NCBI GenBank assembly: GCA_024137785.1
Contig: JAHRHZ010000095.1
Coordinates: 1,645,851 to 1,709,850 of the forward strand
Length of the DNA stretch: 64,000 bases
From: Ginglymostoma cirratum
Lineage: Eukaryota
Direction of reading: 5' to 3'
Numbering within the stretch: position 1 is the first letter of the stretch; each line of letters begins with the position of its first letter. The notes under the pieces are model-generated. The model was not told where the DNA came from. It worked only from the letters and a program-made list of their open reading frames with translations, and did no database searches. Positions 2,971 to 62,591 of the stretch are shown here, one piece after another. The translations under genes were made by a program, and so were the position numbers.

Positions 2971-3391
2971 ATATGTTTCTGCTACGCAAGTAATCCATGC
3001 TTGCTAAGAAAGTATTGCCAGAGTATCACTGGGGAAACCTTTTGGTAGCAAATCTGTTCTGTAAGCTTAACTATGTTCAAAGTAGTAATCAGGATCTATA
3101 TGTTCAAAGTCGTCATCAGGATCTATTTTGTGAGACATTTCCCCTTGCTATTTTTGCTATTGTGTATGACCTGAGCTAATGCCATATTACACAAACTCTA
3201 TGTAAGAGGTGGGAATTAATGGTTCTCAATTTTTCATGCGATCTTAAAAATTACTAAGTGAGATTTGAACAGCTTACATTTTATTGAATTATTTAAGGAG
3301 TGCCAGGAATGAAGCAAAGCTGTTTTCTGTATAATGTTACCCATTCCATGGCCTCTGTTTTGTATAACTTGTTAATTCTTTGTCATTGCAG

Positions 3392-3427
3392 GTGGATATG
3401 CAGCAGCTAAAGCTGCTAAATACGGAG
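3392..3427 (+). CDS. eln: Elastin exon A, KA cross-link domain [12 protein letters not shown]
   Basis: tctttgtcattgcag|GTGGATATGCAGCAGCTAAAGCTGCTAAATACGGAG|gtaaat; 36 nt. Confidence 0.92.
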
Positions 3428-6400
3428 GTAAATCTTCCTATTTTGTAATAACATCAAACTATTACTGTACCAGTAAGCATGGGTTGTTAATAAAATCAAT
3501 AAGAACAATTTTCTTGTTAAATAGAGAACATATATAAATTTTAATCTGTGATCAAGTAAAAAAAAAAACTTCAAGCAGTGTTACATCACTTTCCTGAAGT
3601 TAAACAGATGTGTACAAATATGACTTGTCACTCTCCATTTTAATATCCAGTTGCCAGGAATTTAAGTTTGTATCTGAGAAGCTTTCCCTCATACTAAACT
3701 GGTGACGTTGTAACTAAATAATATCCATTAACATAATGTGCAGAGAATTTGAAGTATGAGGCAGAAGTTTTGCAAAGCAGAATAGTCTTTATTACAGGGA
3801 GAATCGACGAAGTATCTTGCTAGATGAAGAACAAGAATGAAAGGCACAATTCCAGACATATATCTATATGAAATATTTAATGAGCAATCTCTAAGTACTT
3901 GATGAGGGTCCTATATTTGGGAAGTATGGAAGTAGCAAGGTTTACTAGCCAGACTCAGGGACCTTGAGCCAATGCTGGTCAGGGAATATCAGAATCACAA
4001 ACTATTCAATATTCCATTCCTTTCACAGTCTTTCTCCATAATTACTTTATGTTCACTCGATTATTTTCAAATATTGCTTTAAACTGAAGTAGGAAAACAC
4101 TCAATTATTGAAATTAAATCTGAAATTAAGATCTGAGTTGCAATACAATGGTAGTAGTTACCTTGTTAAAATGTTGCAGATTTGTGCAGATATCATAAAA
4201 ATACATTAGCTGCGACTTCAGCATTCTGCGGATGCTGTGTTTAGAGCGATGGCATTTTGTGCGTAGAGTAGAAATGCATGTCATTTATTTTGAAAAGAAC
4301 TTTTGTTAACTCATTGTCTTTTTTTTGTTCTAATTTGAATAATGGTGTTGTCCAGGACATTAATGTTTCCCGTGTATGTTGTGGTTATAATATTAACAGA
4401 CGATTGATTATAATGAAGTACACTAATAAATTTTGCTACTACTGTTTCTGTATGGTCCAAATAGCTATATGACAAATACCAAAGATATTATTAATACATG
4501 GTTATATCACCTAATTAGTAAGTTAGAGAGAAAGATTAAGTAGCCACTGAAAACCAAAAAGTGGCCACCAAAAATCCAAGAAGTACCCCCAGAGAAAATC
4601 TAAAAAAGATCCTCAGAAAGGAAATGAATTTTGACCTGAGACTCACGTTCAAATCAAAAATGATGGCAGAATGATCAGGAGTCAAGCAACACTTGAAGCA
4701 ACAGGAAAGCTCGAGGGAGACAGATTGTTAGGCAGAGCTGAGAAAAGCAGTTATTGTCTTCTTCACAGACATCCCAAACTCCTTTTCAATGATATTAGTC
4801 TCCAAACCTTCCAGCCCGGGGTGGGGTTGAGTGAGTGATGGCAGGATACCAATTTGTAGTTTATAGAAAGAGGCAGAGTCTGAGTGGATACAGTTCAATA
4901 TAGGAAAATATGCTGTGATGGAGATTGAAAGTAAGTAGAGGAAAAGGAAATAACAACCTAACAGATATTAAATGTGAAAAAGCAAGAGAATGAGAATGAC
5001 TATGAAGTATATTGGAGATATTAGATCAGATGACTAAAATCTTCAAGAAAGTGGCGGGGGCGGTGGGGAAATGTCTGAAAGGAAGAAAGTGTTAAGTCCA
5101 GATGTAAGGAGGGAATTTCAGAGGTTGCAGCATACGTAACAGAGGACATTGCAGCCATGGTGAAGAAACTATGATTGGGAATGCACAAGAGGTCAGAATT
5201 AGATGAACGCAGATCTCTGGAGGATTGAGGGGTTGGAGGAATTAATCTTGTCATCCTTTAAAACAGTTCTGAAGTAGGGTGACTGGACTCAAAATATTAA
5301 CTGTACTTTCTCTCACAGATGCTGCCAAAGCTGCTGAGTTCCTCCGAGCAAATTCTGTTTTTGTTTTGGGTTTCCAGCGTCTGCAGTTATTTGTTTAGTT
5401 ATAGGAATCAAAGAACAGATCAATAACCATGGTGATAGGTGAAAAGGGATTTATGCAAATTAAAACGCAGGCAGCAGAGCTTTGAATTTGTGGAGGATGG
5501 AATGTTGGTAATGAGCCAGGAGAACATTGAATTCACTAAATCAAGAATTAGCAATGATAGGAATCAGGGTTTCAACAGCAAATTAACTAGGGTAGGGGCA
5601 AAGTTCAGTGATATTTCTCACATAGAAAAAGCTTGTCTTTAACATAATTAGAAGATCATAAACTGATTGCAGGATTGATTGTGACACCAAACTTGCTGAT
5701 GCAACCTTTGCTGAAGATTCCCTAGGGATCTCTCTACTGCAATTTGTCTCCTATTTAATCTCCACTATTTAGCTTTACTATGTCCAGTCCTATTATAATG
5801 CAAGCAAGTTATTTTCTTTACATCATATTTGAGTTCTTGCCTTCCCCCATTATTACTTTGGCGTCATTCTATTTATTCTTTTAAGCTAATACTACTTCCA
5901 TTTGCAGATTTTCTATTTCTCCAGTTTCCTTGTGAATTCCCATTTGACCATTTCTCCACATGTAATTGTGTGAAAGGGGATAACTACCTGACCTACAGCA
6001 TCTTATATCTTTGATACTTGATGTTCATCTAAAAAAATTTAAGATTTACTAGAATACTATTATTGAATTTAGGTTTCTCACCTTGTAACTCTAAATTTTA
6101 ATTAATATCTTTCAGGGACATGCTTAAAAGCATTAGGTGTTTTCTTTGACAGTTTCATAGTTTGCATGTTGTTCTTCTGACAAACTGACATGCACATGAT
6201 TTTCTGATGAAGGGTTTAGGCCCGAAACGTCAAGTTTTCCTGCTCCTATGATGCTGCTTGACCTGCTGTGTTCATCCAGCCCCATGCTTGTTATCTTGGA
6301 TTCTCCAGCATCTGCAGTACCTTTTATCTCTGATGCACATTCATTGCTGTGTTTGTCAAAACACACTATGATAAAATCCAAAAGTCTTTTGGCCATTATG

Positions 6401-9400
6401 TCTGCCACCTGCTTTTTCAAATGAGGTGAAATAGCTTTCAACCGCACCCTCTGTACATTTTAGGCACTAAGCATAGATTTTTAGTCAAGACGAATCCGTC
6501 CAATTTCCATTTACCTTTTACTTTATTCTCTTCTCTCACAAGTCTTCTTTTTATTTCTAACTGAATCTGAGCCAATTCTAGGTATTTTCAGGTTTTCTCA
6601 ATTCAGTTTTCCTTCCTTTTGTTCTAAATGCTGGGTAATCACTTTAAGGATCTCATCTACTTTCAGTATATCTGCTAAATTCCTCCATTTAGCCTGAATT
6701 AAAGATGTCAAATAATACAATCTTTTGGTCCCAGGATTATCTGAGTTCCAAGTAGGTCATACTGGACTCAAAATGTTAATTTTGTTTCTGTCTCCATAGA
6801 TGCTACTAGACCTGCTGAGTTTCTCCAACATATTCTACTTTTATTTCACAACACAGCTGTTTTATGTCCTGTGCTTGTATGTATCCATTTCTTTACAAGA
6901 GACATAAATCCCTTTTAAATTACAAACATATAAACAAGCATAAATTATGAGCAGAAGCAGACGATTCAATAATACAATGGCTGATCAGTTTGTGGTGCTC
7001 CAAATTTCACATTCACAACTATTCTTGATAACCTTCAAATCCCTTGCCTAACAAGAATTGATCTACTGCCACCTTAAATATTTAATGATCCATCTCTAAG
7101 GCAGAGAGTTCCAAAGTTGCACAGCCCTAAGAAAAAAACAACCCTCATCCTTTCCTAAAAGGATGACGCCTAAGCTTAAAAAAGTATCTACTAATTCTGG
7201 ACTTACCCACAACATTATTTCCACATCCACCTCTCCAAGACTGCTTAGAAGCCAGCATAATCTATCTTTCCTCATAAGAAAACCCACTTATTCCAGGTGT
7301 CAATCTAGTAAACCTTCTCTGAACCACCTCTAGTGTATTTACATCCTTCCTTACATAAGAAGACCAAAACTGCAGGTAGTCTGACCAATGATGTGAGCAA
7401 CACCACAGGACAGGGGAGAAAATTAGTGTGGGTAGTTTAGTATGACAGGGTGAGAAATCTCACTTGCCCTCTCCGCAAGAAACTCTCCAACTACTTGACA
7501 CATCTTGAATTTAACCAAAAAGAACATGAGAATCAGCCTTATATTATTTCATTTTTTCAGTTCCTCAATCTCCTTCATATCCATTCTGATGATGCCACAT
7601 TCCATAATGCTTCCAATATCACATTATTTTCCCTCAATCAAAGATTCCTCCACTGTAGGTGACAATACCAAGAATGACTTCTCTCCTATTTCTTGCACTT
7701 TTAATGTCACTCCTACCCCTGCCCCCACCACCTTCCAGAGTTACAATAATCTTTCCCCTGTGCTCACTTTGCACCACAGCATTCTTCACATAACGTTTTT
7801 TCCTCACAATTTCTTCCATGTTTATAGCAATACTACTACCAAGCACAAATGCCCCTACCTTCCATTTCAGAACTCTGAAGGGACCAATCAGTACAGAACA
7901 TCATAGCTCATTCTATCACAACACTTTTTCTGCAAGAGTGGGAGATGCACCATTTGGCTTTTCACCTCTTCCCATCATCCAAGGTTTCAAACTTGCCTTT
8001 CAGGTGAAACAGCAGTACTCTTGTACTTCCAGTTTGGTAAATTGCATTCTGTACATTAAGGATACCAAACTGAGATTTCCTGATTGATTTGTTGAGCAGT
8101 ACCGTTTATTACAAAAGTCATATCTTGAGCTTACATCACGGACCATTTTTATTCTCCATATCACCCTCACTTCAACTTCTCTTTCCTTGTCTTCCCACAA
8201 GTGTATCTATGGTGGAGGAGGATGAGATTGATGTTCACTCATGACAACAACCTGCATGCAGAGATTTTTTGAGTTGTGATGTTATTTCGTTGCAACTACC
8301 AATTAATTGTGGCCAACCAAGAAGATCTCCCACTCCGACCATCTGCCACAAACGTTTAGGAAGAGTTTACAGATTGATAATGAAACTGATGGGACATACC
8401 TTCTGTGGCCATAAAGTTCAGAGGTCATATTTGAACCCTGAGTGCCTGGCTCAGACATAGAATGCTACCATTACACCATGACATCTGCTATTCCTACCAA
8501 TGATGTAAATGGAAGCTTAAGGAACACATCTCATTTTAGTTAGCTCTTTCTGGACTTAACATTAGGTTCAATAATTTCAGAATGTACCTACTGCTCCCAT
8601 TTTGTTTTAGATGATAGATGTACTTAATGATTCCATTGTTACCATTTACAGTGCTTTTTCATACCTCTTTTGTTGCTTTGCTTGTCCCATTGCCATTCCT
8701 TTACTTAGCACTTTTATTCCTTTCCTTAAATCAATCCAGCCATCTAACCTTTCATAACTTCCCATTTTGTTCTTTCCATCATCACCCTCTCTTTCCCTGC
8801 CAATGAGCTTGTGTAAAACTTGTTACATTTGTAATGTTTTCCAATTCTAATGGAAGGCCACGTTACCTGAGACTTTACCTATGCTTTGTTCTCCAGAGAT
8901 GCAGTCTGACTCTGCTGAGTATTTCAAGTAATTTTGCTTTATATTTAAAGAAAGACTTCTCAGCTTCAGGAGACCAAATTAGATAAAGACAATGAGAATG
9001 TGGTAGAATTGCAGTTGACAAGTCCCTTGGTTTACTTATCAGTCCTGTATCCAATTTTCACCCATCCTGGGCATATGCGTTCAATGTCAGTGATACAGCT
9101 GTGTCATAAAGGGCACAAGGTATTGAAAAGTGGATCCAAGCTTGATGCTGAATCAAGAGCTTTTTCTTTCACACTAATTTATTCACATGAATACAGTCTT
9201 ACAGCTTTCCAGATTATACATGTCAATGTCCCAGTTGGTCCTTTATTTATATATCTCAGCTTAGATATTTTCTAATCAACCTGTTCAGCAATGTTATTAC
9301 ACACTTCTAGAGAAAGTGGGTTTTAGCTTAGGCCTCCAATTAACACACATCACTTGTTTATTCTTAACCATGTCTTGACATTAACAGATGTTAGCATTGC

Positions 9401-12400
9401 AATTATTCACTCAAACAGAACTGTACGAGCTATCATCATATCGTCCTGATGATTCTGATAAAGGAAATGTTAGACCTTGCACTGGCATTAGTTTTGTATG
9501 TAACTTTACTGGACAGATTTTGTATTACAGTCTTATTTCCTTGTGCTGTTAATACAGGAGCGATTCCAGGAGCTGTTCCAGGGGCTATAGCATGTACAGT
9601 TATTTTTTACTTAGTTTAACATTAGATTGATCTGTTATTCTGACATTGGTTACATATTTTCATTTTATTGACTCATTTTTGGTGACAATGTCATAAGGCC
9701 AACTGACGGAGGTTTAAACTTAATTTCGCTATATTAATGATCTAATTGATTTCAATAGTACATTATTCAGCTGTCTAGGCTTTAGAACTCTTGTTGATTC
9801 TTTGCTAGGAGCTCATTTATATTGATTACTACTATCCAGTGTTGTTACTGGCAGGAAGTTTCATATTTGACGTAGATTTGCCTGCAACACCACTGTTGCA
9901 TATTACTGCTTGTACCAATCATTTGATGTACAGTAAGATATGACTGTGGTAGATTTTTTTTAACCTATGATACCTCAACGTCAGTGCTTTCCTTCTGTTT
10001 CCAGCAGTAATTCAGTTATGTTGCTGTTTATAATATTGCATTGTTGGACTGGGTGTACTTAAAATAACTGTCAAAAATTACTAGTTATAAAACATGCTAA
10101 CTTTATTTTAACACATTTGCAGTTGTGAGAACATTCCCATAAACTATTTCCATGCTACTTTCTCGTGAGTCATTGTGAAACCAAGTCACTTCCTTCTACA
10201 AATCAGATACTGTTACAGCAAATGCTTTATGGACATAGTTTGACATATTACATTATGCTATCTCCCACCAATCTCACAAGTCAAACTTCAACCTTTAACC
10301 TTTTCTAATGTTCCTGGAAACATACAGCTTCTGTCTCCTAGTCATTCTGAGACTTCTGAGATAGATTCAGTGCTTTGAATTCTTGTAGGAAATGTAACTT
10401 CTTTGTGCTGTCTCAAGTAAATAAAAAATAGATTGACTCCATGGAAGGAAGACTGTGAACGTAGATTCCTACTTATCCACATACATTTTAATATCACAGG
10501 TCGAAGGTATTAACGTAGGGACAGAATAAGAAATAGAGGAAACTTACCAAAGCAGATGAAACACTATGACATTGATTGCAGTGCAAGAATATCATCAGAT
10601 CTTCAACAATAAGGTCAGGTTTGGATCAGAAATCAACGAAGTTTGGAGAAACAGTGGAGAGATCATCACACCTGAGATCTTGTATTTTTCAGATGGAACA
10701 GGACATGTCGCAAAAAGCATGCAGAACTTCGATTGCATTTAAGCAACACAGTAAAAAGCAGAGACCCTGGGGTCAAACCCCAAACCATCTACGAGTGCAA
10801 ATTCTGTTTGGAGGACCAACAGCAGAATGAGAATGCTTTATTGCCAATAAGAGCTGAATGAGAAACAGTAAATGAGTTAAAAACAGCACAATGCTTATTG
10901 TAGTAAGAAAATTGAGAATCTCAAAAAAAACTGGAGATAGGAGAAGAGAGGACAGGAAAAGAATAGAAAGAAAAGAAAGGTGTGATGATCTTTCCACTGT
11001 TTCTCCAAACTTCGTTGATTTCTTTCTTTTCTTTCTATTCTTTTCCTGTCCTCTCTTCTCCTATCTCCAGTTTTTTTTGAGATTCTCAATTTTATTGCTT
11101 CGATAAGCATTGTGCTGTCTCTGAGGAGACCAGTGTGGTAAGAGACCAGCTGACCATCCAGGGAGAGAGGAAGAGAGAAAGCAGCTTCGAAGACCCAGAG
11201 ACAGGCAGAGAGAGAGACAGAAATTGCGTTAATCCACAAGAAACTTGGGAAGTATTAATTGGCATGGCGGTCTCTCGGCCCGACATTGCAGTCTCTTTGC
11301 GCAGTGTTGTGACCTCTTGGCCCGGTGTGGTGGTCCCGGAGCCCAGTGTGGTGGTCTCTCAGCCCAGCGTGGCCTCAGCATGGACATCTGGCCTCAAGGT
11401 AATTCCAAAGCAGTCTCCCAGCCTTGAGAGCCTTGAGGTGAAGCACAGCATGACCTGGAGTCAAGGCCTGATGAGGACAGGCAACCAGGTACCAGTGTAG
11501 AATGGGTTGGAAGGACTGTTGTTCTGAACTTATTTTTCTGTATTTTCAAATTTATTCCTACAGTCTGAAATGCTGGACTTTTTTTCCTATTTTTCTAAAT
11601 TTTTTTTCCTAACAGCTTGTACTGAAGAATCTGTACCTAGGTAACTTGTATCAAAGATAGTGCCATAAGTGGCACCTTGTAAACTTCTCACTCTTTTCAT
11701 TTGAATACGTGTGACAATAAAGCTAATTCAGTTCAATTCCATATTAGTTGAACATCTTCATTCTTTATCAGTAATACCTTTATATTTCTGACATCTCTCT
11801 GAGCTTCTCACTTAGCCTGAAGAAACCTTAATGGGCTTATATGAACAAACTCAAATGAACCCATAAACTCTTGAAACTTTATTCTCTCAAACTGTGGGCT
11901 TTTGCCTGCCATCACAGTATCAGGAATCCCATGGACTGCAAGAAATTCTTTCAATGACTTTTTCACTGCTCTGCTGTGTGAGCGTATTACTGTTTCACTT
12001 TTATCTACCTCAAGTAGTAATCTACTACTATTATAAGCCTCTTTCCTCTTTTATGTGTGCATCAATTCCAGGTGTTTCCATGGCTTTGTCAGAGTAGGCG
12101 ATGGCATCAGTGGTCCTTCGATTCCTATTATACATGTGATACATTTGGATATCATTTCTTCCACTGACTTTGAGACCTGCCAACAAACTAAATATCGTAC
12201 TCTGGCTCTGTACTTGTGCCTAAATTACCTCAATGTAGGCATTAAAATTTCACACTTCAAATGATTTTATGATTACTAATCTATCATCAAAACCTCATTT
12301 ACTGTCAGATGTGCTCTCTGCTCAAAAATACGGTCTCAAAGTAGGAATATATGGGATATATGTTGGCTTTCTGTCATAAAATTCTTGCAAAGTCTCACAT

Positions 12401-15400
12401 TCTTTATTTTATTTTTGTGCCTCTGATTTCAGTGAATCGTTTTGTAGTCTCCAGTAATGTATGAAGCATCATCATAGCAAACTTCTCAACATTTTCTACA
12501 ACTTCACTGTCACATTTTTCTGGAGTCTTTGCTTTAACATATGGTGATGCATCTCCTATGTTGCATCATTTCCCTTGAATGTATAACATAAGAGTAATAA
12601 ATCTCATAAAACTTAATTGAAACATTTAAAGTTTTGATGGTATCACTTCAACTTCTTTGGAATACAGCGGTGTGACTGAGATCTACTTCTGTGATAGTGT
12701 GAAGACCAAGACATAGTCAGTAAATTTCTTACATGCCCCCATAGCTGCTGAAGTTTCCTTCTCAATTAATGTATATTTTCCTCTGTATCTGGTAATGATA
12801 GGAGATATTGTAGATAGATCTGCATTTTCGTCTCTTGTGTACCTGAAATAGTATTGCCCCAATCCTGTACAGGATGTGTCTGCTGCTATTATTTCAGATA
12901 ATTCTAAATCATAACATGCTAAAACTTCTGATGACAGCACCCAACCATTGATGTTTTGATAATTTCTGATGTGTTTCTTCCCAAAATCTATTCATCATCA
13001 TGATGTAGCAACTGGTGCAGTGGCTCTTAGAGCTATGTTGCATTTTTTTTCACAACTTTGCCACATGATTGACCATTCCCATTAACCTTTATAATGGTTG
13101 TTGGAGCTGAAAATTCTTTTATGATTCTAGTCTTCAATGGATAAACTTGTGTTACTCGTGCACTCTCTATGTGACCAAGAATCTTGATTGTTGGTTGTCA
13201 AAACTTGTTGAGTGTCATTGTTGTCCATTGTAGACTTCACAGCATTGCTTTCATTCTCTTGCCATTCTCAGCCTGAGTAGAGTCATTTTTCAGTGTAAGG
13301 CCTCTTAAAATATTTGACATTTGTTCTTTTAAAGATCTCTGGTGCTTGTATTGTTCCAAAGGGTAACCTGTTGAAAGTTGTGAGAAGCTTGGACTGCTCT
13401 TCTAGCAGTATGTACTAAAATGTGCTGTTACTATCTAATTTAAAGATTATTAAACCCTTCCCTAACTTTGATAAACTTCCATTTACTACTACCATTGGAT
13501 TGACTTTTCATAATTTTATTGAGTCAAATGAAATCAGTACACATTTTTATATACACATTTGGTCTCACAACTGATATAATCCCGAATCACCAACTTGATG
13601 GCCCTTTTTATGGGGGAAATATATCTTATCTGACCATTTGAGTTGCTCACCTCTTGCCCTTTGGAAGTTAAGAGTGTGGGCTGTTTCTTGGTGCATTTAA
13701 GTACATTGCACAAAATTCAGAAATGAAATCAATGTGGCATGCCATTTTAGCTTTCCCAATCCCGTAAGTGACTCTGCTTTAAAGTATCTTCGCTGACCTT
13801 CATCACTGTTTGATTATTCTATTCTGTGAATTAGGTTCAATTATACACATGCCTTCTTGCTTAACAACTCTGATTTTGAATTATCTACATTACTCAGTAA
13901 TTGTATTTTCTCTGTGCTTTAAAATAGCTGATCTCCTAGAACCTTCCATCATGTTCCTCCTTGCTCATGCAGCTTTTTACAAGATGGGTGAAGATTTTTC
14001 TTGTTTAACGATGGTTCAGTATCTGAAAAAACTGAAAGTGCTGCGCTGTACCTAAAGTATGTCCAGTGACTTTCCACCAGTTTCTCTGTGCTCCAAAAAT
14101 TTCGATTTTAGTCTCTCCTAAGAAGGATATATCAATATCTTGTGAATATTTTCTTTCATGAACTCTTTCTTTTTAAAACATTGGAATATCAGTGATTAAT
14201 TAAGCTAATAGATTTAAAAATATTAAATCGTGAAACTTCAGGCTTGCTCATGTAAAAAATTTCCACTCACATTACATATTCACAGAGCTTGATTTTATTG
14301 CTGTATAGTGACTTCTGCTTTTAGGGGCATTATTATGGACTTTGCTCACTTTGATCTGAACTTTCCTCCTGCCAGCCTTCACTACAATAATGGAAAATCA
14401 CATAAGAAAATCACACAGAACAGAGGGAGAGGAGATTTGGCAAATGTACACAAAATCATGGGTCTGTACAGAGTAGTTAAGAAAAATGGTTCCCATTGGT
14501 GAAAGAATCAAAAACATAAGGACGCAGGTTTAAGGTAATTGGCAAAAGAAGTAAAGGGAGACATGAAATGTGAGAGTGTGGTAAAGACAGACACAGTTGA
14601 AGCTTTCTAAAGGAAACTGATTCTTATCTGCAAAAGGAAGATGTGGGGGAAAAGGGAAAATGCAGTTGAGTAGCACTAAGTGAACTGTTCTTTCAAAGGA
14701 CCATTCCAGTCACGATAGGTCAAAAGGCTTATTTCTTTGCTATAACAATTCTGTGATGCTATGAGTGTTGTTTCCATTTTAATGCTGACAAGCAATTGTT
14801 AGAAGAGCTATTCTCGGAACTATAAGGGTCAAAATTCACAAAAGCTCCTTGGATAACACTTTCCAAACTCATGACTACCATCTAGAAAACAAGGATAACA
14901 GATACATTGGAACACCATTACTTGTAAGTTCCCCTCTAAGCCACTCACCATTCTGACGTAGTAATATATCACAATTCCTTTTATGTCAGTCAAAATCCTG
15001 AAGTCCCTCCCTATGACAGCATATGACAACAAATTCACTGCAGTGGTTCAAGAAGGCAGTTCACCACCACCACCTTAAAAGGTAACTAGGGATGAGAAAT
15101 AAATGCTTGCCCAGCCAATGATGCGAACCTCACATCTGTTCACTCTGTGTTTAATGCCATCCTGATGTTGTTTAAGAATTCCCAATTTATTACAACTTCT
15201 TCTCACCCACCACCCCCCTGATAGTGATGGCAATGAAATACAGCCAAGCTTGGTTCATTTTAGTATTTAAGCCTGGAATTGCAAACAGTACCATGCAATA
15301 CACTGCTGCTAACTATTCAATGATGTTTCTGCCATTTTACTGAAGACACTAATGAATGTAACTCTCTGCCTGATATTGCAGGTGGTCCAGGAGCTGTACC

Positions 15401-51400: not shown

Positions 51401-54400
51401 AGCTAAGAATAGCCAGGAGGGGACATGAGAAGTCTTTGGCAGGTTGGAAAACCCTAAAGCTTTCTATAGGTATGTCAGGAACAAAAGAATGACTAGAGTA
51501 AGATTAGGGCCAGTCAAGGACAGTAGTGGGAAGTTGTGCGTGGAGTCTGAAGAGATAGGAGAGGCGCTAAATGAATATTTTTCGTCAGTATTCACACATG
51601 AAAAAGACAGTGTTGTCGAGGAGAATGCTGCGATACAGGCTGTTAGACAAGACAGGATTGAGGTTCACAAGGAGGCGGTGTTAGCAATTCTGGAAAGTGT
51701 GAAAATAGATAAGTCCCTTGGGCCGGATGGGATTTATCCTAGGATTCTCTGGGAAGCTAGGGAGGAGATTGCAGAGCCTTTGGCTTTGATCTTTATGTCG
51801 TCATTGTCTACAAGAATAGTTCCAGAAGACTGGAGGATAGCAAATGTTGTCCCCTTGTTCAAGAAGGGGAGTAGAGACAATCCTGGTAATTATAGACCAG
51901 TGAGCCTTACTTCGGTTGTGGGTAAAGTGTTGGAAAGGATTATAAGAGATAGGATTTATAATCATCTAGAAAGGAATAATTTGATTAGGGATAGTCAACA
52001 CGGTTTAGTGAAGTGTAGGTCGTGCCTCACAAACCTTATTGAGTTCTTTGAGAAGGTGACGAAACAGGTGGATGAGGGTAAAGCGGTTGATGTGGTGTAT
52101 ATGGATTTCAGTAAAGCATTTGATAAGGTTCCCCACGGTAGGCTATTGCAGAAAATATGGAGGCATGGGATTGAGGGTGATTTAGCGGTTTGGATCAGAA
52201 ATTGGCTAGCTGGAAGAAGACAGAGGGTGGTGGTTGATGGGAAATGTTTATCCTGGAGTTCAGTTACTAGTGGTGTATCGCAAGGGTCTGTTCTGGGGCC
52301 ACTGCTGTTTGTCATTTTTATAAATGACCTGGATGAGGGCGTAGAAGGATGGGTTGGTAAATTTGCGGATGACACAAAAGTCGGTGGAGTTGTGGATAGT
52401 GCGGAAAGCTGTTGCAGGTTACAGAGGGACATAGATAAGCTGCAGAGCTGGGCTGAGAGGTGGCAAATGGAGTTTCATGTGGAAAAGTGTGAGGTGATTC
52501 ACTTTGGAAGGAGTAACAGGAATACAGAGTACAGGGCTAATGGTAAGATTCTTGGTAGTGTGGATGAGCAGAGAGATCTCGGTGTCCATGTGCATAGATC
52601 CCTGAACGTTGCCACCCAGGTTGACAGGGTTGTTAGGAAGGCATACAGTGTGTTAGGTTTTATTGGTAGAGGGATTGAGTTTCGGAGCCGTGAGGTCATG
52701 TTGCAGCTGTACAAAACTCTGGTGCAGCCGCACCTGGAGTATTGTGTGAAATTCTGGTCGCCGCATTATAGGAAGGTTCTGGAAGCATTGGAAAGGGTGC
52801 AGAGGAGATTTACCAGAACGTTGCCTGGTATGGAGGGAAGGTCTTATGAGGAAAGGCTGAGGGACTTGAGGCTGTTTTCGTTAGAGAGAGGAAGGTTAAG
52901 AGGTGACTTAATAGAGACACACAAGATGATCAGAGAATTCGATAGGGTGGACAGTGAGAGCCTTTTTCCTCGGATGGTGACGGCTAGCAAGAGGGGACAT
53001 AGCTTTAAATTGAGGCGTGATAGATATAGGATAGGTAGGTTCTTTACTCAGAGAGTAGTAAGGGCATGGAATGCCCTGCCTGCAACAGTAGTAGAGTCGC
53101 CAACTTTAAGGGCATTTAAATGGTCACTGGATAAACATATGAATGATAAGGGAATAGTGTAGGTTAGATGGGCTTCAGATTGGTTTCACAGGTCGGCGCA
53201 ACATCGAGGGCCGAAGGGCCTGTACTGCGCTGTAATGTTCTGTGTTCTCTGTGTTAAATTAGTTAGCCAGTCCTCCATTTATGAAAATATACTACCTCTA
53301 ACACCATGGAATCTTAGTTCATTAAATACCCCTATGTGCAGTACTGTTCAAATGTCTTTTGGAAGTTCAAATATATTACATATATTGGTTCCCCTTTATT
53401 TACTTTGCTTGTTACCTCCTGGAAGGAATTGTCATAAAATTGTCAAGCGTGATTTTTCCTTTATTAATTCCCTTGCCTGATTATTATTGTGTGTTCCTGA
53501 CTGCTCTGCTATTATATTCTTTATAATAGATTAATATTTTCCCAATAACGAATGTTAAGCAAAGTGGCCTACAGCTACCTGTTTCTTTTTTCCTTTCCTT
53601 TTCAGATAAAAATGTTACATTGGCAGTTTTTCAATCCTCTGGGTCTTTTCCACAACATAGGCAATCCTGGAAGATTATTGCCAGTGCTTCCACTATCTGT
53701 GTAGCTACTTTCTTTAAAATCCTAGGATGCCCACCAAGTCCAGCGGACTTATAAGCCTTTAGCACCATTATTTTCCCAGTACATTTTCTCTGGTGATGGT
53801 TATTATGTTTCTTTCATTACCCCTGCAGCTTCATTACTTAGTATTATTGTATTGTTATTACTAGTTTTCACCATGAAGACTAACACAGTGTTTGTTCATA
53901 TCCTTTACCATTTCCTGGATGCACAACCTCATTCTCTAAAGCATCCATATTCACTGTTGCTTCTCTTTTCATTTTTAAAGAAGCTCTTAATATCTGTTTA
54001 TTTCTATGATACTTGCTGGTTTGTACCCGTGGTTTATTCCCCCTTCTTTATTACATTCAATAGTCACCTATTTTTGGCTATCAGACTTTCCCAATCCTCT
54101 GAAATTACCATTGATCTGTGCAGCATTGTATACTCTTTCTTTCCTTATGATATTGTCTTTAACTTCTCTGGTTATCTGTGATTAGCTCATCCTGTTCCTA
54201 AAATCATTCTTCCTTACTGGTAAATATCTCTTTCTTTGAGTCATGAAGTTTAAAAAAAATGTCATTATTCATCAACCATCTTTCCTGCTGAACCCCTCTC
54301 CAGTCCACTCCAGCCAACTCTGCATTCGTGCCCATTGTCATTGTCTTTATTTAAATTTAGCACAGTTGTTCCTGTTCCACATTTCTCACTCTCACACTGA

Positions 54401-57400
54401 ATCTAAATTCTACAGTGTTATTATTAGACCATTTATTAAACCTGCTTCATTACACATTACCAGATTCAAAATAGCCTGATTGCTGATTGCATCCAAAGTC
54501 ATTGTACTAGAAAATTATCCCGAACATGCTGTATCAATTCTTCCTCATGGCTACCTGTGCCCACTGATTTACCAGAAATATATGAAGATTGAAGTCACCC
54601 ATGATTCATGTTTTACCTTTTTTTACATGCCCTCATTATTTTCTGATCTATTCTGTATCAGTCCAGTTGTTGTTAAGGGGCCTGTACACTACTCTCACCA
54701 ATGTCTTCAGCCCCTTGTTATTTGTTACTTCCAACCACAAAGATTCTACATCGTCCAATCCAAGATCATTTCTAACATCAAGGAGATGTATTGCAAATTA
54801 AGCACAAACTTTATTAAATTTCAAGCCTATATGTCAGTCCCCACCACATAAATGGGGCATGTTCTTGTGAATGATACCTGTCCACCCCACAGTGCTTGAT
54901 GTGACAGCTGGCAGACATTACGGCAAGTGAGCACGCGTTGTAATGCCTGTGTTGCCACTTTTAGTGCTTAAGAACTTCTTTGGGTCAGCTACAATGTCAG
55001 GGAAGATGTAAAAGACTTTGATTTGGAAACTACTAGTAAGTGCTTGTAATATTTTTAAAATGCAGTTCTTATTTTGAATAGATTCAGAGATGGTAGGAAC
55101 TGCCGATGCTGGAGAATCTGAGATAACAAGGTGTAGAGCTGGATGAACANNNNNNNNNNNNNNNNNNNNNNNNNNNNNNNNNNNNNNNNNNNNNNNNNNN
55201 NNNNNNNNNNNNNNNNNNNNNNNNNNNNNNNNNNNNNNNNNNNNNNNNNNNNNNNNNNNNNNNNNNNNNNNNNNNNNNNNNNNNNNNNNNNNNNNNNNNN
55301 NNNNNNNNNNNNNNNNNNNNNNNNNNNNNNNNNNNNNNNNNNNNNNNNNNNNNNNNNNNNNNNNNNNNNNNNNNNNNNNNNNNNNNNNNNNNNNNNNNNN
55401 NNNNNNNNNNNNNNNNNNNNNNNNNNNNNNNNNNNNNNNNNNNNNNNNNNNNNNNNNNNNNNNNNNNNNNNNNNNNNNNNNNNNNNNNNNNNNNNNNNNN
55501 NNNNNNNNNNNNNNNNNNNNNNNNNNNNNNNNNNNNNNNNNNNNNNNNNTGCTGCTTGGCCTGCTGTGTTCATCCAGCTCTACACCTTGTTATCTCTTAC
55601 TTTTAATACTTCTTTTTGATATTAAAACTGAACTAAGCTTCTCATCTTCCTACCTTCAAAATCCTTCCCCTCAAGCATATCTGAAGTCAGAGATCACTTT
55701 CTTAAATCTTACATCTAGAGATTGGGTATCATTCAAGTCCATTTGGACTGCACCTCTCCTACATTGGATGAGCAATCTAATCCATTCTACCCAAGATCAA
55801 CTACCATTCTCACCACCACCCTCAAACCAAGAAACCACTTTGAGCTGTGACCTAGTCCCAATCCTTACCACCCAACTGGAAGCAAAGCCTGTCAGTCAGA
55901 TGGACATCCGGATAATGGGTCTGATCAGGACAAGATGCATGTTGTGGACACTGTTATGTAAGGGCTTCAGAACTCTGGCATAACCTTGTGGTGATGTCAT
56001 TGAGCTGCGCATCGCTCAGCTTAAATAACAAGTTTGGGTAGAGTTTGGCTGTAGCAGCATACACTACATTTAGAATGAGAGAGACTTGAGTACATATGAA
56101 CATAAACACAGAAAGAATCAAAACAGCCCCATTTGCATTTTTTGTAGCCTGATACTCTCAATTAATTAAAATTTAGAATTTTGTGATGAGTTTTGAGAGT
56201 TACCAATAGTTCTCAAAATATGGAAATGGAGGATTGCTTATAACTTACTACAGTTTTGATATACCATAACTACAAGTTCAAGAAGATCTAAAAGACTAAA
56301 GTCCAAAAAACTAAAGACAAAAGATTAAGATTCATGGTTAACTTAAAACTGGTAATTACAACATTCTGCATTACTCGCCTTTGTCTTGTTGCATTCATCT
56401 ATTGGAATTTGATGAGTCCAAAGGTACAACAAATGGAACATGTCCATGATTGTCCCTCATTAGATCAAACTTTCATTTTCAGCTCCACTGACTATGTCCT
56501 AGCAAACCAGTTTCAAAGTCTTCATCTTCATTTTCAAAAGCCTCTTGCAATAATGATTCATATGAAGTTCCCCCGGCGTAAATGTTGAAATCCCAGAATG
56601 TAATTTTGAAAATCAAATCTGATTTTAAAAATTTGGACTTGTTCCAAAAACACAACAGGTTCACTGCTGTCTTTCAGAGAAATAAACCCGATTTTATTCC
56701 TGATCTGCTAAAATATGATTCCAGTCCCACTCCAGTTTCATTCATAAATTACCTAGCAAGCCATTCAATTCTGCTGGTACCTTCTCTCGGCCACAAGGTA
56801 GAAGCAATAAGTTTTGGCTTTCAGTTTCATCCATCATCAACAACCAATAATGAATAATCATACTCTGCACTTTAAGAATTCTTTCCAAGCCACTCAGACT
56901 TGTTATCCAAATTGGGTTCTGGGTACCAACTACTGGCAGCTGTTATTTGCTGTTCACTGTAATCACTGTTTCCTTCTATGTTGATTCTGTGCCACTGTCT
57001 AATTACCAGTGATAGGTGATAGATCACCAGAGAGCCTTAACCAATAAAGGTGTTTATTTTGGCAAACAAAGTATAGGTTATTGCATGAGAACAATGGATA
57101 CAATTAACATTAACCAGTCAGACATAGTTATAACCATCAGGAACCAGTTATGTACACGTAAAAACAAAACGCTGCGGATGCTGGAAATCTGAAATAAAAA
57201 CAAAGTGCTGGAGAAACTCAGCAGGGGTTCTGGTGGCATCTGTAGAGAGAGAAATAGTGTTAATGTTTCAAGCCTGATGTGACTTTTCCAGAACTGTAGG
57301 TTTAATTGTCACATAACATAGTTTGATATATCTGACAACGTTTAATCTAAAAGTTCTGACCATAGCAGGTAAGACTGATCTGTTCTAGAATTCCTGCAAC

Positions 57401-60400: not shown

Positions 60401-62591
60401 AAAGTGTCAAATGATATTCCACAAGTCTCATCATTGGGAACAGTGTTCATGTTTTACATGAACAATTTGGAGTCAGGAAACAGGAGTGGACATCACTGAA
60501 TCAGAGATTTATATTAATATTGAGGAACACTGTGACAAATTGTAAATCAATGTTAATAAACTTACAAAAAGGGCATGTCATTGTGAAATTGATTTCAGTT
60601 AAGATAAATGGAAGGTCACTCAGTAAGAAGAATATAGAGGTCACTCTCTGGAAATAAGAATACAAGTGGGTTAGAAAGCAGAAGGATCTAAAGGTACAGA
60701 TGAGCAAATCACTAACGATAATGATACAGACTATCAAAAGGGGAAAATAGCATTGGGTTTCATTTCCATAGGGAGAGGATGGAATAACGGACCTTTGTAT
60801 TAAACACAGTTGAACCTTGTTGAGCCCACATGGTCACGGTTCTGCTCTCCGTACAGTATATGCAAGCATTGGAGAAGATGCAAATAGTAACTAAAAAGGG
60901 TGACGCCAGAAATAAAATGAGAAACTTATCAGGTAAAACTCAACAAACCAGGGCTGTCCTCTCTAGGGAAAGGAAAGTTGAGGGATAACCTGGTTTTGGT
61001 CTTAAAGATCATGAAAGGAATTGTTAGGGTTGTAGAAAGAGGGCAATGGATTGTTTTCAACATAATGTAATTTTGATTGGAGTAACCAGAAGTGTGTGCA
61101 TCATTCCTGCATTCATCCTTTTTCCCAAACAGTTGCAATTAAAATTTCAAATGCCAGCAACATGCATAAGAGATACTTGCAATGATGTGAGAGCTGAAGC
61201 CTTTGAATGGCTGAATGCACTATCAGTTGACAATTCTGCAGCTACAGATGGGCTGTAAGAGGAACCTGCTGGCAAAATTGCATCACTGTCAAAACTTCTA
61301 TACCAACTTCGCTGCTATTAACATAAGTTTTGATAGGTCAAATGTTGCAGGGATGATTTTCATAGTTAACTTGTAAGCTGCAACATGTTACTTGTAAATA
61401 TTTAGCATTACATTAGTTTCACTTTATTCGTGTATGTAATAGATGTTAATGATAGAAGTTTCAGGGAAGAAAATTGCTGTTAATCTTTTGAATGCCTCTT
61501 GTCATGTCTGTATACAGATAGTCTGTTGATTCTGTACCATTGCAGGTGGACTTGCCCCATCTAAAGCTGCTAAGTATAGAGGTAAATATTCCTACTTCTG
61601 ATATAATCATTAATCTGTATAATCATCAAATTATTGTTTTACATTTGAGAGTGTAATGTAGTTTTATTCTGTTAAAGAGATTAATGATATTTGTAAATTA
61701 ATGATTTACTGGGTGAAATTTAATGTCCTTCTCTTTGAGGAGTTTGGCAGTTGAGGGTGGGGAGGCTTTTGACTCTGAATGGAGAGTGGTGATTGGCTTC
61801 CCATCTCCATCATAATTAAGTTCATCGTGTGAAGATCTGTGGGTGTACGCAGCCTCTAAATTTAACCAAATGATGAACAGGGCTCAGCATGTGAGGGGTA
61901 TAATAATCAAACTCATAGATGGTTGATGGGAGGACTGTAGTGGTGCAATGGTCGTGTGCCTACTTCTGAACCAGGAGGGCTGAATTCAATTCCCATCTGC
62001 TTCAGATGTGTGGAATAATATCTCTGAGCAGATTGATTGGAAAGTACCTGATTGCTTGTATGCTTTCGGGTAGAGGGGGCATCACTAAAAGGTACTCAAT
62101 GCCTGACCAAGGAACCCAGCATTTAGGATTGGAGATTGTTGCCGAGAGCCGCCTCCCTGCTTTTGCTGTTGATCTGTATTCATATCTCCATGATCAGACT
62201 CCACAATCCCTTCTTGCCATCACTCACCACATTTAGCCAAGCCTTGGATGTGTGCCCTATCAGCAACAATCACTGCCTCTCCATTGGTACTGCTCTTCAA
62301 ATAACCTGCTGTTCCCGGATTGACTGGAGAAACCTAGTGGGTGCGACCTCTGCCCACAGGATCCTTGAATCCAGGGAAAGCTTGACACTGTCCGCTTAAG
62401 TGCATGAGAATGCCTCTTTTGTGGAAGGCTATGTGGATCTCTCACTGGCTCTTCAGCCAGTGGGCAAGAATCACATCTTTAAAAACTGTCCAATATTTCT
62501 GATTATTAAATTCTTGTAATCTCAATTGCAGGCCTGGGATTGGGTGTGCAACCTGGCGTAGGAGTAGGTGTTCTGCCTGACATCGGAGTGG
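3392..62591 (+). CDS. eln: Tropoelastin-like (elastin) gene, internal 15-exon portion; both ends lie outside the window
   Basis: 15 AG/GT-flanked phase-1 exons total 912 nt and join in frame without stops. KAAKY cross-link exons alternate with G/V/P hydrophobic exons, the established tropoelastin architecture. Exon letters below are local to this window. Confidence 0.9.
6198..6332 (+). mobile_element. Solo Penelope-like terminal repeat with hammerhead motif
   Basis: Near-identical to the arms of the element at 30307-31067; flanked by the direct repeat atgcacat (6190-6197 and 6333-6340). Confidence 0.8.
6204..6231 (+). ncRNA. Minimal type I hammerhead ribozyme motif
   Basis: CUGAUGA-A-GGGU(UUAG)GCCC-GAAA-C-GUC; short helix I AUUU/AAGU. 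Confidence 0.65.
6925..7385 (-). mobile_element. Degenerate CR1 3' fragment
   Basis: Minus ORF ends [13 protein letters not shown], the typical CR1 ORF2 C-terminus. Confidence 0.7.
7560..8940 (+). mobile_element. Highly degenerate Penelope-like element with an internal insertion
   Basis: [17 protein letters not shown] leads into a decayed GIY-YIG region; ends in a degenerate terminal repeat near 8850-8940. Confidence 0.5.
9558..9593 (+). CDS. eln: Elastin exon B, hydrophobic [12 protein letters not shown]
   Basis: ttgtgctgttaatacag|GAGCGATTCCAGGAGCTGTTCCAGGGGCTATAGCAT|gtacag; 36 nt; weak donor; flanks resemble exon E. Confidence 0.7.
10883..11118. repeat. Long near-perfect inverted repeat
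   Basis: 10908-10979 is the reverse complement of 11022-11093; outer extension acagcacaatgcttat/ataagcattgtgctgt. Confidence 0.9.
11120..11740 (+). mobile_element. Non-autonomous retroposon-like repeat
   Basis: GC-rich body; ends gtgacaataaagctaattcagttcaattc (polyA signal plus short-repeat tail). Confidence 0.45.
11890..14100 (-). mobile_element. Decayed Gypsy-type LTR retrotransposon pol remnant
   Basis: ORF 12683..12940 has ADTSCTGLG and YTLIEKE (RNase H-like). The minus strand near 13330-13377 reads FNRLPFG..APEIF. Confidence 0.75.
14830..15130 (+). mobile_element. 3' tail of a CR1/L2-group LINE
   Basis: Colinear with 34980-35290, ending aactagggatgagaaataaatgcttgcccagcc. Confidence 0.7.
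15382..15426 (+). CDS. eln: Elastin exon C, hydrophobic (G/C)[14 protein letters not shown]
   Basis: atattgcag|GTGGTCCAGGAGCT...GTTGTACCCG|gtaagt; 45 nt. Confidence 0.88.
16190..18430 (-). mobile_element. Degenerate CR1 LINE
   Basis: Minus ORFs with [21 protein letters not shown] and endonuclease-like [10 protein letters not shown]. Confidence 0.8.
17247..17337 (-). mobile_element. Truncated Penelope-like terminal repeat inserted in the CR1
   Basis: Reverse-complement match to 6205-6295; first C of CUGAUGA lost at the junction. Confidence 0.8.
18638..19405 (+). mobile_element. Penelope-like element 3' fragment with inverted terminal repeats
   Basis: EHLCSI...[36 protein letters not shown] (GIY-YIG C-terminus); 18638-18790 is an inverted copy of the 3' end. 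Confidence 0.85.
20364..21360 (-). mobile_element. Penelope-like element of a second family (RT C-terminus plus GIY-YIG), frameshifted
   Basis: [15 protein letters not shown]; [30 protein letters not shown]; REFLEA. Confidence 0.9.
20402..20443 (-). ncRNA. Mutated hammerhead ribozyme motif
   Basis: Minus strand UGCA-CUGAGGA-U-GUUACCA(AGCA)UGGUAAC-AAAA-C-AUC-UGCA; GAAA box reads AAAA. Confidence 0.65.
21852..21887 (+). CDS. eln: Elastin exon D, KA domain [12 protein letters not shown]
   Basis: tctttgtcatttcag|GTGCAGCTGCTGCAGCCAAAGCTGCAAAATATGGAG|gtaaat; 36 nt. Confidence 0.92.
22135..22700 (-). mobile_element. CR1 3' fragment
   Basis: Colinear with 31680-32250. Confidence 0.7.
22720..23300 (+). 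mobile_element. Degenerate CR1 RT fragment
   Basis: ILAWIEDWL and RFADEMKIG motifs. Confidence 0.7.
23320..25500 (-). mobile_element. Degenerate CR1/L2-group LINE, same family as 34140-35310
   Basis: Reverse-complement colinearity, e.g. ccttgatgccaca versus tgtggcatcaagg; shared 3' tail. Confidence 0.75.
26476..26838 (+). mobile_element. tRNA-derived SINE with LINE-derived tail
   Basis: A/B-box-like head (tggcctactgg...ggtttgaatcc); tail gggcaattagggatggataataaatgctg shared with the LINE end at about 35235-35290. Related minus-strand copies at about 25560-25860 and 40545-40910. Confidence 0.75.
27480..28100 (+). mobile_element. CR1 3' fragment
   Basis: LYRALVK...[19 protein letters not shown]. 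Confidence 0.75.
28543..28563 (+). CDS. eln: Elastin microexon E, GAPGGIT
   Basis: ttgtgctattaatttag|GTGCTCCAGGAGGTATAACAG|gtacaa; 21 nt; an alternative in-frame donor follows 28554 (gtataa). Confidence 0.7.
30408..30435 (-). ncRNA. Minimal hammerhead motif, antisense arm
   Basis: gacgtttcgggcctaaacccttcatcag, reverse complement of the 6204-6231 motif. Confidence 0.65.
30974..31001 (+). ncRNA. Minimal hammerhead motif, sense arm
   Basis: ctgatgaagggtttaggcccgaaacgtc. Confidence 0.65.
31228..31263 (+). CDS. eln: Elastin exon [13 protein letters not shown]
   Basis: ttgtgtctttaatacag|GTGCTGAAGGAGCTGTTCAGCCTGGAGTTCCGGGAG|gtaagg; 36 nt. Confidence 0.87.
31662..33930 (-). mobile_element. 5'-truncated young CR1 LINE (RT)
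   Basis: ORFs 32646..33953 and 31743..32636 ([26 protein letters not shown]) separated by one stop; short-repeat tail (aaagaac)n. Confidence 0.95.
34140..35310 (+). mobile_element. CR1/L2-group LINE 3' fragment
   Basis: [14 protein letters not shown]; [17 protein letters not shown]. Confidence 0.85.
35425..35850 (-). mobile_element. Degenerate CR1 3' fragment
   Basis: Colinear with other minus-strand CR1 tails (gaaggaggccatt..., ttctccaaggaaaacaatcccagc). Confidence 0.6.
35900..36225 (-). mobile_element. Deu-domain SINE-like remnant (AmnSINE1/SacSINE1 group)
   Basis: gtttaacatctcatcc...cagcactgcctc and tacttttggagtggcattactgttg resemble the reverse complement of the Deu consensus as recalled from memory. 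Paralogous copies at about 37490-37860, 42620-42830 and 46280-46490. Confidence 0.6.
36412..36492 (+). CDS. eln: Elastin exon [28 protein letters not shown]
   Basis: atcttaatatag|GTGTTGGA...ATTGGAGTTG|gtaatt; 81 nt. Confidence 0.9.
36882..36917 (+). CDS. eln: Elastin exon H, KA domain [12 protein letters not shown]
   Basis: tttcattctag|GCGGAGCTGCTGCATCTAAAGCTGCCAAATATGGAG|gtaaaa; 36 nt. Confidence 0.92.
37661..37748 (-). pseudogene. Degenerate 5S rRNA-derived sequence
   Basis: Minus strand ggccatactagtct...ctaagcag...ttagtgcttggatgggagaccaactgggaata follows 5S rRNA including its C box. Confidence 0.8.
38048..38179 (+). CDS. eln: Elastin exon I, GLGVGVQP(GVGVGVQP)3[12 protein letters not shown]
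   Basis: atctcaatgtag|GTCTTGGA...ATCGGAGTAG|gtaaat; 132 nt; 24-nt coding tandem repeat. Confidence 0.92.
42289..42324 (+). CDS. eln: Elastin exon J, KA domain [12 protein letters not shown]
   Basis: tttctgtcactgcag|GTGCAGCTGCTCCATCTAAAGCTGCTAAATATCAAG|gtaagt; 36 nt. Confidence 0.92.
43009..43089 (+). CDS. eln: Elastin exon [28 protein letters not shown]
   Basis: atctgatttag|GCCTTGGA...ATCGGAGTGG|gtaatt; 81 nt. Confidence 0.9.
43670..44547 (+). mobile_element. CR1 3' fragment
   Basis: aagtttgcagatgacaccaaa (KFADDTK); 3' UTR ending gggcctgtttccgtgctgtatgcctctatgac. Confidence 0.85.
46044..46079 (+). CDS. eln: Elastin exon L, KA domain [12 protein letters not shown]
   Basis: ctctcattacag|GTGGAGTTGCTGCATCTAAAGCTGCTAAATATGGAG|gtatat; 36 nt. 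Confidence 0.9.
46671..46874 (+). CDS. eln: Elastin exon M, 8.5 copies of G[LVI]GVGV[QK]P
   Basis: atctcaaactag|GTCTTGGA...ATCGGAGTGG|gtaaat; 204 nt; overlaps ORF 46685..46945. Confidence 0.93.
47750..54850 (-). mobile_element. Older minus-strand CR1 fragments, split by the plus-strand CR1 at 49531-53248
   Basis: The two sides join as ...cccaact|ctgtgttaaattagttagccag; ttggtgtcatccataaactt is the FADD-equivalent on the minus strand. Probably more than one element. Confidence 0.65.
49531..53248 (+). mobile_element. Near-full-length CR1 LINE: ORF1 SGNH-esterase, ORF2 APE endonuclease plus RT; disrupted
   Basis: ORF1 [27 protein letters not shown]; endonuclease FNARS, YRPP, MGDFN, SDH; 572-aa RT ORF with KFADD. 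Frameshifts near 50110, 50590 and 51445 and a stop near 50535. Confidence 0.96.
55084..55596. mobile_element. Penelope-like insertion with inverted termini spanning the assembly gap
   Basis: gagataacaaggtgtagagctggatgaaca left of the gap and its reverse complement right of the gap. Confidence 0.75.
55150..55549. other. Assembly gap (400 N)
   Basis: Run of N. Confidence 1.
57160..57296 (-). mobile_element. Degenerate Penelope-derived short repeat
   Basis: gctgcggatgctggaaatctgaaataaaaacaaagtgctggagaaactcagc; relatives at about 5265-5395, 6745-6850 and 37110-37320. Confidence 0.6.
58050..58287 (-). mobile_element. Solo-LTR-like repeat
   Basis: TG...CA termini, minus-strand AATAAA (ctttatt at about 58095), about 240 bp; family recognised from memory only. 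Confidence 0.5.
59376..59485 (+). mobile_element. Short tRNA-derived SINE
   Basis: tggtgcagtagtagtgt...ggttcaaattcc; relatives at about 61930-62040 (+) and 37570-37660 (-). Confidence 0.65.
59990..61080 (+). mobile_element. Very old CR1 RT remnant
   Basis: aacccaggaactataga (NPGNYR); attccacaag...ttggga (PQG-like); no intact ORF. Confidence 0.55.
61546..61581 (+). CDS. eln: Elastin exon N, KA domain [12 protein letters not shown]
   Basis: ctgtaccattgcag|GTGGACTTGCCCCATCTAAAGCTGCTAAGTATAGAG|gtaaat; 36 nt. Confidence 0.9.
62532..62591 (+). CDS. eln: Elastin exon [21 protein letters not shown]
   Basis: atctcaattgcag|GCCTGGGA...ATCGGAGTGG|gtaatt; 60 nt. Confidence 0.88.

Follow-up and report, generated by a model that had tools for sequence, protein, structure and literature searches.

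Tropoelastin genes of cartilaginous fishes are already on record. A 2025 survey of 51 fishes (PMC12733013) gives, in the sections drawn on here, ten chondrichthyan tropoelastins of 797-1226 aa with NCBI protein ids (Table S1), notes an eln-limk1-septin4/5 block throughout, and describes repeated 36-nt cross-link exons in Mobula; it also finds some eln genes misannotated, which fits the worry about mis-annotation voiced in the original prediction for the present locus. In teleosts, limk1 synteny is described in PMC4735684, and the features of amniote ELN, where skipped and degenerate exons are common and exon 1 ends in (T/S)QQG-G and S(W/R)QG-G, are defined in PMC12554196 (both cited for the parts used here). 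The stretch of DNA analysed here (the window; 64,000 nt, C95:1645851-1709850, + strand, where C95 is contig JAHRHZ010000095.1 of the 4.36-Gb assembly G000) is almost certainly the replicated centre of a tropoelastin (ELN) gene. This gene is likely a shark's only copy, and its exons would be cassette-spliced into the mRNA of an elastic-fibre protein. The gene is a true ELN orthologue and an ordinary one, with the window as its middle, so that calling it 'cryptic' and expecting it to inform the early evolution of elastin, as the original prediction did, overstated the case: ten chondrichthyan tropoelastins with the same synteny are already described in PMC12733013, in the sections we used.

Exons were detected by a six-frame motif search and a phase-1 exon scan (AG ... 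GT, open frame, G/A/V/P-rich) in the window, with 400 kb on either side also examined; because the scan was restricted to phase-1 exons, phase uniformity is partly built in. The 15 tiny exons first proposed were all recovered in place on the + strand, flanked by AG and GT and with lengths that are multiples of 3, and they amount to 912 nt or 1.54% of 3392-62591, matching the coding share of about 1.5% claimed for them. Splice sites are strong in 14 of the 15, the exception being 9558-9593, which is skipped (see below), leaving 14 small phase-1 ELN exons in the window. The proposed alternation of KA and hydrophobic phase-1 exons was borne out, with six KA cross-link exons, all of exactly 36 nt and each followed by one to three Gly/Val/Pro-rich hydrophobic exons. 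The features of the window, all on the + strand, are as follows.

3392-3427, +: ELN KA exon, 36 nt (AG/GT, phase 1; donor used in joint 3427>15382)
9558-9593, +: skipped, likely decayed hydrophobic exon (donor score 1.4; skipped in transcript data)
15382-15426, +: ELN hydrophobic exon, 45 nt (both ends in GT..AG joints)
21852-21887, +: ELN KA exon, 36 nt (acceptor used in joint 15426>21852)
28543-28563, +: ELN short hydrophobic exon, 21 nt, core APGGIT (predicted, splice-site scores only)
31228-31263, +: ELN hydrophobic exon, 36 nt (predicted, scan and splice-site scores)
36412-36492, +: ELN hydrophobic exon, 81 nt (motif search, scan)
36882-36917, +: ELN KA exon, 36 nt (scan; intron flanks 74% like those of 46044)
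38048-38179, +: ELN hydrophobic exon, 132 nt, 24-nt tandem unit encoding the octapeptide GVGVQPGV (motif search, scan)
42289-42324, +: ELN KA exon, 36 nt (scan)
43009-43089, +: ELN hydrophobic exon, 81 nt (motif search, scan)
46044-46079, +: ELN KA exon, 36 nt (scan)
46671-46874, +: ELN hydrophobic exon, 204 nt, 8.5 copies of the 24-nt unit (motif search, scan)
61546-61581, +: ELN KA exon, 36 nt (scan, catshark protein comparison)
62532-62591, +: ELN hydrophobic exon, 60 nt (scan, catshark protein comparison)

The octapeptide repeats of the hydrophobic exons contain Gln. Alternative donors occur at 28554 in exon 28543-28563 and, with a score equal to that of the listed one, at 31275, 12 nt downstream of exon 31228-31263; use of the latter would append GKDI, and hence one lysine, to that hydrophobic exon. 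A run of 400 Ns at 55150-55549, in an intron of 14.7 kb, could conceal exons; the KA/hydrophobic alternation is unbroken across it.

The composition-plus-splice scan returned 15 rows (12 distinct donors) on the + strand of the window and none on the - strand; over 464 kb it gave 43 matches on +, of which 32 were kept, and 8 on -. Donor scores of the 32 exons training the splice matrix range from 7.9 to 13.5. Eleven + strand composition matches were dropped for weak donors, three of them within the gene span (34323 and two upstream positions) and eight outside it. Since the latter score up to 22, composition alone is unspecific. These eight matches, together with the 24-nt tandem arrays that make up the long hydrophobic exons, could suggest that minisatellite or repeat fragments resemble exons by chance. 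We consider the probability of this vanishingly small, because all 13 occurrences of the [AS]KAAK motif in 864 kb are on + and none on - (12 of them within modelled exons), the six KA exons of the window share one exact length, and joints seen in the sequencing runs land on the predicted GT and AG, which already refutes such a reading.

Extended in both directions as an ELN gene, and without 9558-9593, the model comprises 36 exons (16 upstream of the window and six downstream) with 2070 nt, one stop and 689 aa, spread over 227.6 kb (0.91% coding). Its 34 internal exons are all AG/GT-flanked, multiples of 3 in length and of phase 1:1. The mature part of 668 residues is 70.5% G/A/V/P (29.8% Gly, 14.7% Val, 14.5% Ala, 11.5% Pro) and 5.2% Gln, with 34 Lys, 12 KAAK, four Asp+Glu and, once 9558-9593 is skipped, two Cys, both in the last exon; one His and two Trp fall in predicted exons. 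An upstream signal-peptide exon was looked for and a predicted exon 1 found at C95:1516781-1516844, 129 kb upstream of the window and 7.9 kb before exon 2. It reads MATTLLQGYLLMVLIKTSLQG plus one G before GTGAG, contains ACAACATGG, a hydrophobic core and the end TSLQG-G/GT, and its ATG, preceded by A at -3 and followed by G at +4, lies in a CpG-enriched stretch. It was one of six candidates of a hydrophobic-stretch scan, chosen by its start context and SLQG-G end; another candidate, 138 kb upstream, had a poor donor and a worse Kozak purine-G context than this exon 9 kb nearer, and was rejected. At the other end, the search for a basic, Cys-containing last exon led to C95:1744320-1744366, 34 kb downstream, which reads PPCAMGKYCGRRRK-stop and carries a Cys pair and an RRRK end. 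Exon 1 and the exons outside 3392-21887 are predicted from sequence, and the model may lack some exons: three 400-base N runs sit in its introns, and for a 19-residue stretch of a catshark protein fragment described below no counterpart was found. Upstream, at 55-66 kb from the window, four predicted exons may resemble the central conserved region (amniote domains 8-14). A predicted 96-nt elastin exon 4465-4560 bases before the window has two Trp-Arg pairs, unusual for tropoelastin.

Like the chondrichthyan tropoelastins in the sections of PMC12733013 consulted, the gene is likely single, stands beside limk1 and a septin, and has KAAK motifs and repeated 36-nt cross-link exons; its model of 36 exons, 689 aa and 12 KAAK is, however, smaller than Mobula eln (70 exons, 1081 aa, 24 KAAK) and shorter than all ten of these proteins (797-1226 aa). 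With amniote ELN, as portrayed in the parts of PMC12554196 used here, it shares a predicted exon-1 signal peptide with Gly at its end, intron borders of phase 1:1, replicated pairs of exons, Cys in the last exon only, a tetrabasic end, a position upstream of LIMK1, a proximal 3' UTR miR-29 site and skipped exons with mutated splice sites. By the same source it differs in its extent (0.9% of its 228 kb is coding, where amniotes have about 6%), in intron 1 (7.9 kb) not being the largest, in ending in RRRK rather than RKRK, in 5% Gln, in its one His and two Trp, residues which amniote tropoelastins lack but whose absence is not a condition for ELN membership, and in a miR-181 site of the weaker 7mer-A1 form with no predicted counterpart of the amniote 3' UTR stem-loop.

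A protein search with the 204-nt exon gave 11 matches, one of them a tropoelastin with 64% identity (P0002), a Scyliorhinus torazame fragment (GCB73870.1; UniRef100_A0A401PL76, UniRef name Tropoelastin), the other matches examined being unrelated low-complexity proteins. The catshark fragment matches the ELN 3' exons in order, agrees with the final two at 17 of 18 and at 14 of 15 positions, and has VQPG/VRPG repeats similar to the GVGVQPGV repeat here; because of this closeness the gene belongs to a cartilaginous fish, likely a shark. A second protein search for full-length elastin found none among 206 candidates, and in a third, with 43 matches, only the catshark fragment itself had KAAK and a Cys/basic tail; no full-length vertebrate elastin was retrieved by any of these protein searches. 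Pfam has no family for the 204-nt exon or the fragment, and an Atlas search with the exon gave bacterial clusters only, under 0.9. With the fragment as query, Atlas ranked 'glycine-rich extracellular protein 1-like' first (0.92, 197 shared features) and 'Elastin' next (0.92, 165 shared features). That ranking and the low-complexity repeats without a Pfam family speak for a locus that encodes, in place of ELN, a look-alike of elastin from among the glycine-rich extracellular proteins, for instance a GREP1-like cluster member. Against such a look-alike, which we regard as very unlikely, stand several features described for ELN and present here: the KAAK exons, the Cys pair with tetrabasic tail, a place immediately before LIMK1 with a septin farther on, and the miR-29 site. 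The identity first proposed, a cartilaginous-fish tropoelastin, holds, carried by the signal exon, the basic last exon with its Cys pair, the LIMK1 neighbour and the spliced joints.

LIMK1 synteny, for which the flanks were searched, is indeed present, with LIMK1-like kinase exons adjoining ELN downstream. LIM kinase exons occupy the stretch 37-64 kb past the ELN stop, in the orientation of ELN, and two kinase exons score higher with LIMK1 than with LIMK2 (77.9 vs 63.3 bits and 91.1 vs 86.1); the PDZ exon of this gene matched LIMK2 chains only, and its LIM exons were not found on C95 among the 150 of 245 candidates scored. Septin exons follow at C95:1936564-1954846, ~190 kb after the ELN stop. 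No second LIMK gene was found among the best candidates (one match of six), in a search whose pattern variant missed the known locus too. In the whole genome, a DNA search gave six matches among the best candidates scored, all in the present ELN gene, and a search with the catshark fragment gave, again among the best candidates, one match elsewhere with E < 0.001, 38% identical and with a stop. A second elastin locus was not seen among the best candidates of the genome DNA and protein-query searches. Further out, an exon of a Mod(r)/VPS37-family gene lies ~264 kb after the ELN stop (L050:8860-9456, +); VPS37D is near ELN in the human Williams-Beuren region. Elsewhere in the assembly, G000:C99:1761025-2079283 holds two septin genes separated by ~250 kb and, past them, a LIM-domain gene, possibly a paralogous block.

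Spliced reads over the predicted junctions were sought in four sequencing runs (X1, X17, X21 and X22), placed on 3300-22000 of the window only, which covers two of the 35 model junctions. None of the runs listed as matching the locus, X1 and X17 among them, is registered as RNA; X1 covers introns too, and contigs lose rare forms. Among the 15 strongest joints, which were examined (94 weaker joints are also present), two are GT..AG and coincide with predicted phase-1 sites, 3427>15382 and 15426>21852, in three of the four runs. The former was found in an X1 contig of depth 53, an X17 contig of depth 515 and one raw read of X21; the latter in X1 (contig, 53), X17 (contig, 515) and three raw reads of X21 from two starts. 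In X22, ten reads aligned in 3300-22000, none informative on joints. An X17 row 'going back' over 3389-3429 is, we infer, a paralogous KA exon of the same contig placed there.

None of the 15 strongest joints touches 9558-9593, whose acceptor is good (17.3) but whose donor, CAT/GTACAG, is poor (1.4 vs 7.9-13.5). The X17 bin with this exon has a depth of 1.18, against about 30 expected if it were included, and the bins with exons 3392 and 21852 have depths of 35 and 34. Because of this bin depth and the direct joining of 3427 to 15382, exon 9558-9593 is skipped in the vast majority, if not all, of these transcripts. The codon at the 3427>15382 junction is Gly and not Cys, so that this joint rules out an internal Cys from 9558-9593 in the main transcript, and the spliced segment with an internal Cys put forward in the original prediction is not the main splice form. 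Among eight exons compared, the flanks of 9558-9593 best match those of 28543-28563, its paralogue, and the ends of the two are near-identical save for T in place of G at donor position -1. One exon without a good donor, and a model shorter than other chondrichthyan elastins, might also be taken as signs of a decaying ELN duplicate or pseudogene. We hold this to be extremely unlikely, given that the frame is open through 36 exons, spliced contigs reach a depth of 515 in X17, and the genome searches, among the best candidates scored, showed no second locus.

Between modules of this ELN gene, exons together with their intron flanks align at 69-82% identity over 220-480 nt, and 42092-43338 resembles 45847-47113, introns included. 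The central region has likely expanded through the copying of modules, each a KA exon together with the adjacent hydrophobic exon and intron. With all borders in phase 1, a copy such as 9558-9593 may lose its donor and drop out without a frameshift. The introns also hold mobile elements. A long LINE at 49533-53159 (+) has three open stretches with GDSL esterase-like (below the cut-off), endonuclease and reverse transcriptase matches, and a second LINE at 31746-34031 (-), its reverse transcriptase split by one stop, is 66% like the element at 51420-52977. A young short repeat, with copies 97-99% alike at 6201-6334, 17239-17337, 30305-30490 and 30918-31065, shows very high read depth in the aligned runs, and 30344-30490 and 30918-31065 form an inverted pair of it; it may resemble the shark HE1 SINE / HER1 LINE tail.

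The small phase-1 exons would be spliced as in-frame cassettes, as seen for two joints and predicted for the rest, into an mRNA whose predicted product is a secreted protein of some 690 residues. By analogy with tropoelastin biology, as given in the parts of PMC12733013 and PMC12554196 used here, the signal peptide would be cut at the end of exon 1, the Gly/Val/Pro hydrophobic domains would drive coacervation and self-assembly, lysyl oxidase would cross-link the paired KAAK lysines into the elastic fibre, and the Cys/basic tail would bind matrix partners.

The 3' UTR carries a miR-29 8-mer site, TGGTGCTA, at +36 after the stop, complementary to an arm of all three own-genome mir-29 hairpins examined (four were found). 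By background, an 8-mer in 80 nt has P about 0.001, a value which, as the UTR motifs were preselected from the amniote description, applies to five motifs listed beforehand. At +56, GAATGTA matches mir-181 arms at positions 2-7 plus A (7mer-A1), and GTACTGT, which presumably fits the miR-101 seed, lies at +369, with a second miR-29 7-mer at +430; all these sites precede the first AATAAA. A stem-loop pairing both miRNA sites in the first 80 nt was not predicted (z -0.57), the sites falling in different hairpins. The predicted sites of the shark UTR would be the set described for amniotes, and we tentatively suggest, with slightly more doubt than confidence, that the miRNA brake on elastin mRNA could be as old as elastin itself. 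A literature search on miR-29 and shark tropoelastin found nothing related. According to the parts of PMC12554196 used here, a previous survey of wider scope (Keeley 2013) had remarked on conservation of the ELN 3' UTR, and given that survey even the point raised here may already be in print.

Beyond annotation the locus adds little, namely the exon map, checked by hand, of a further chondrichthyan elastin in which the duplication of exon pairs and the loss of an exon can be read. With its miR-29 site where amniotes have theirs, the gene bears on the age of elastin's post-transcriptional control: if the brake is as old as suggested, the post-development shut-off of elastin would predate the split of sharks and bony fishes.
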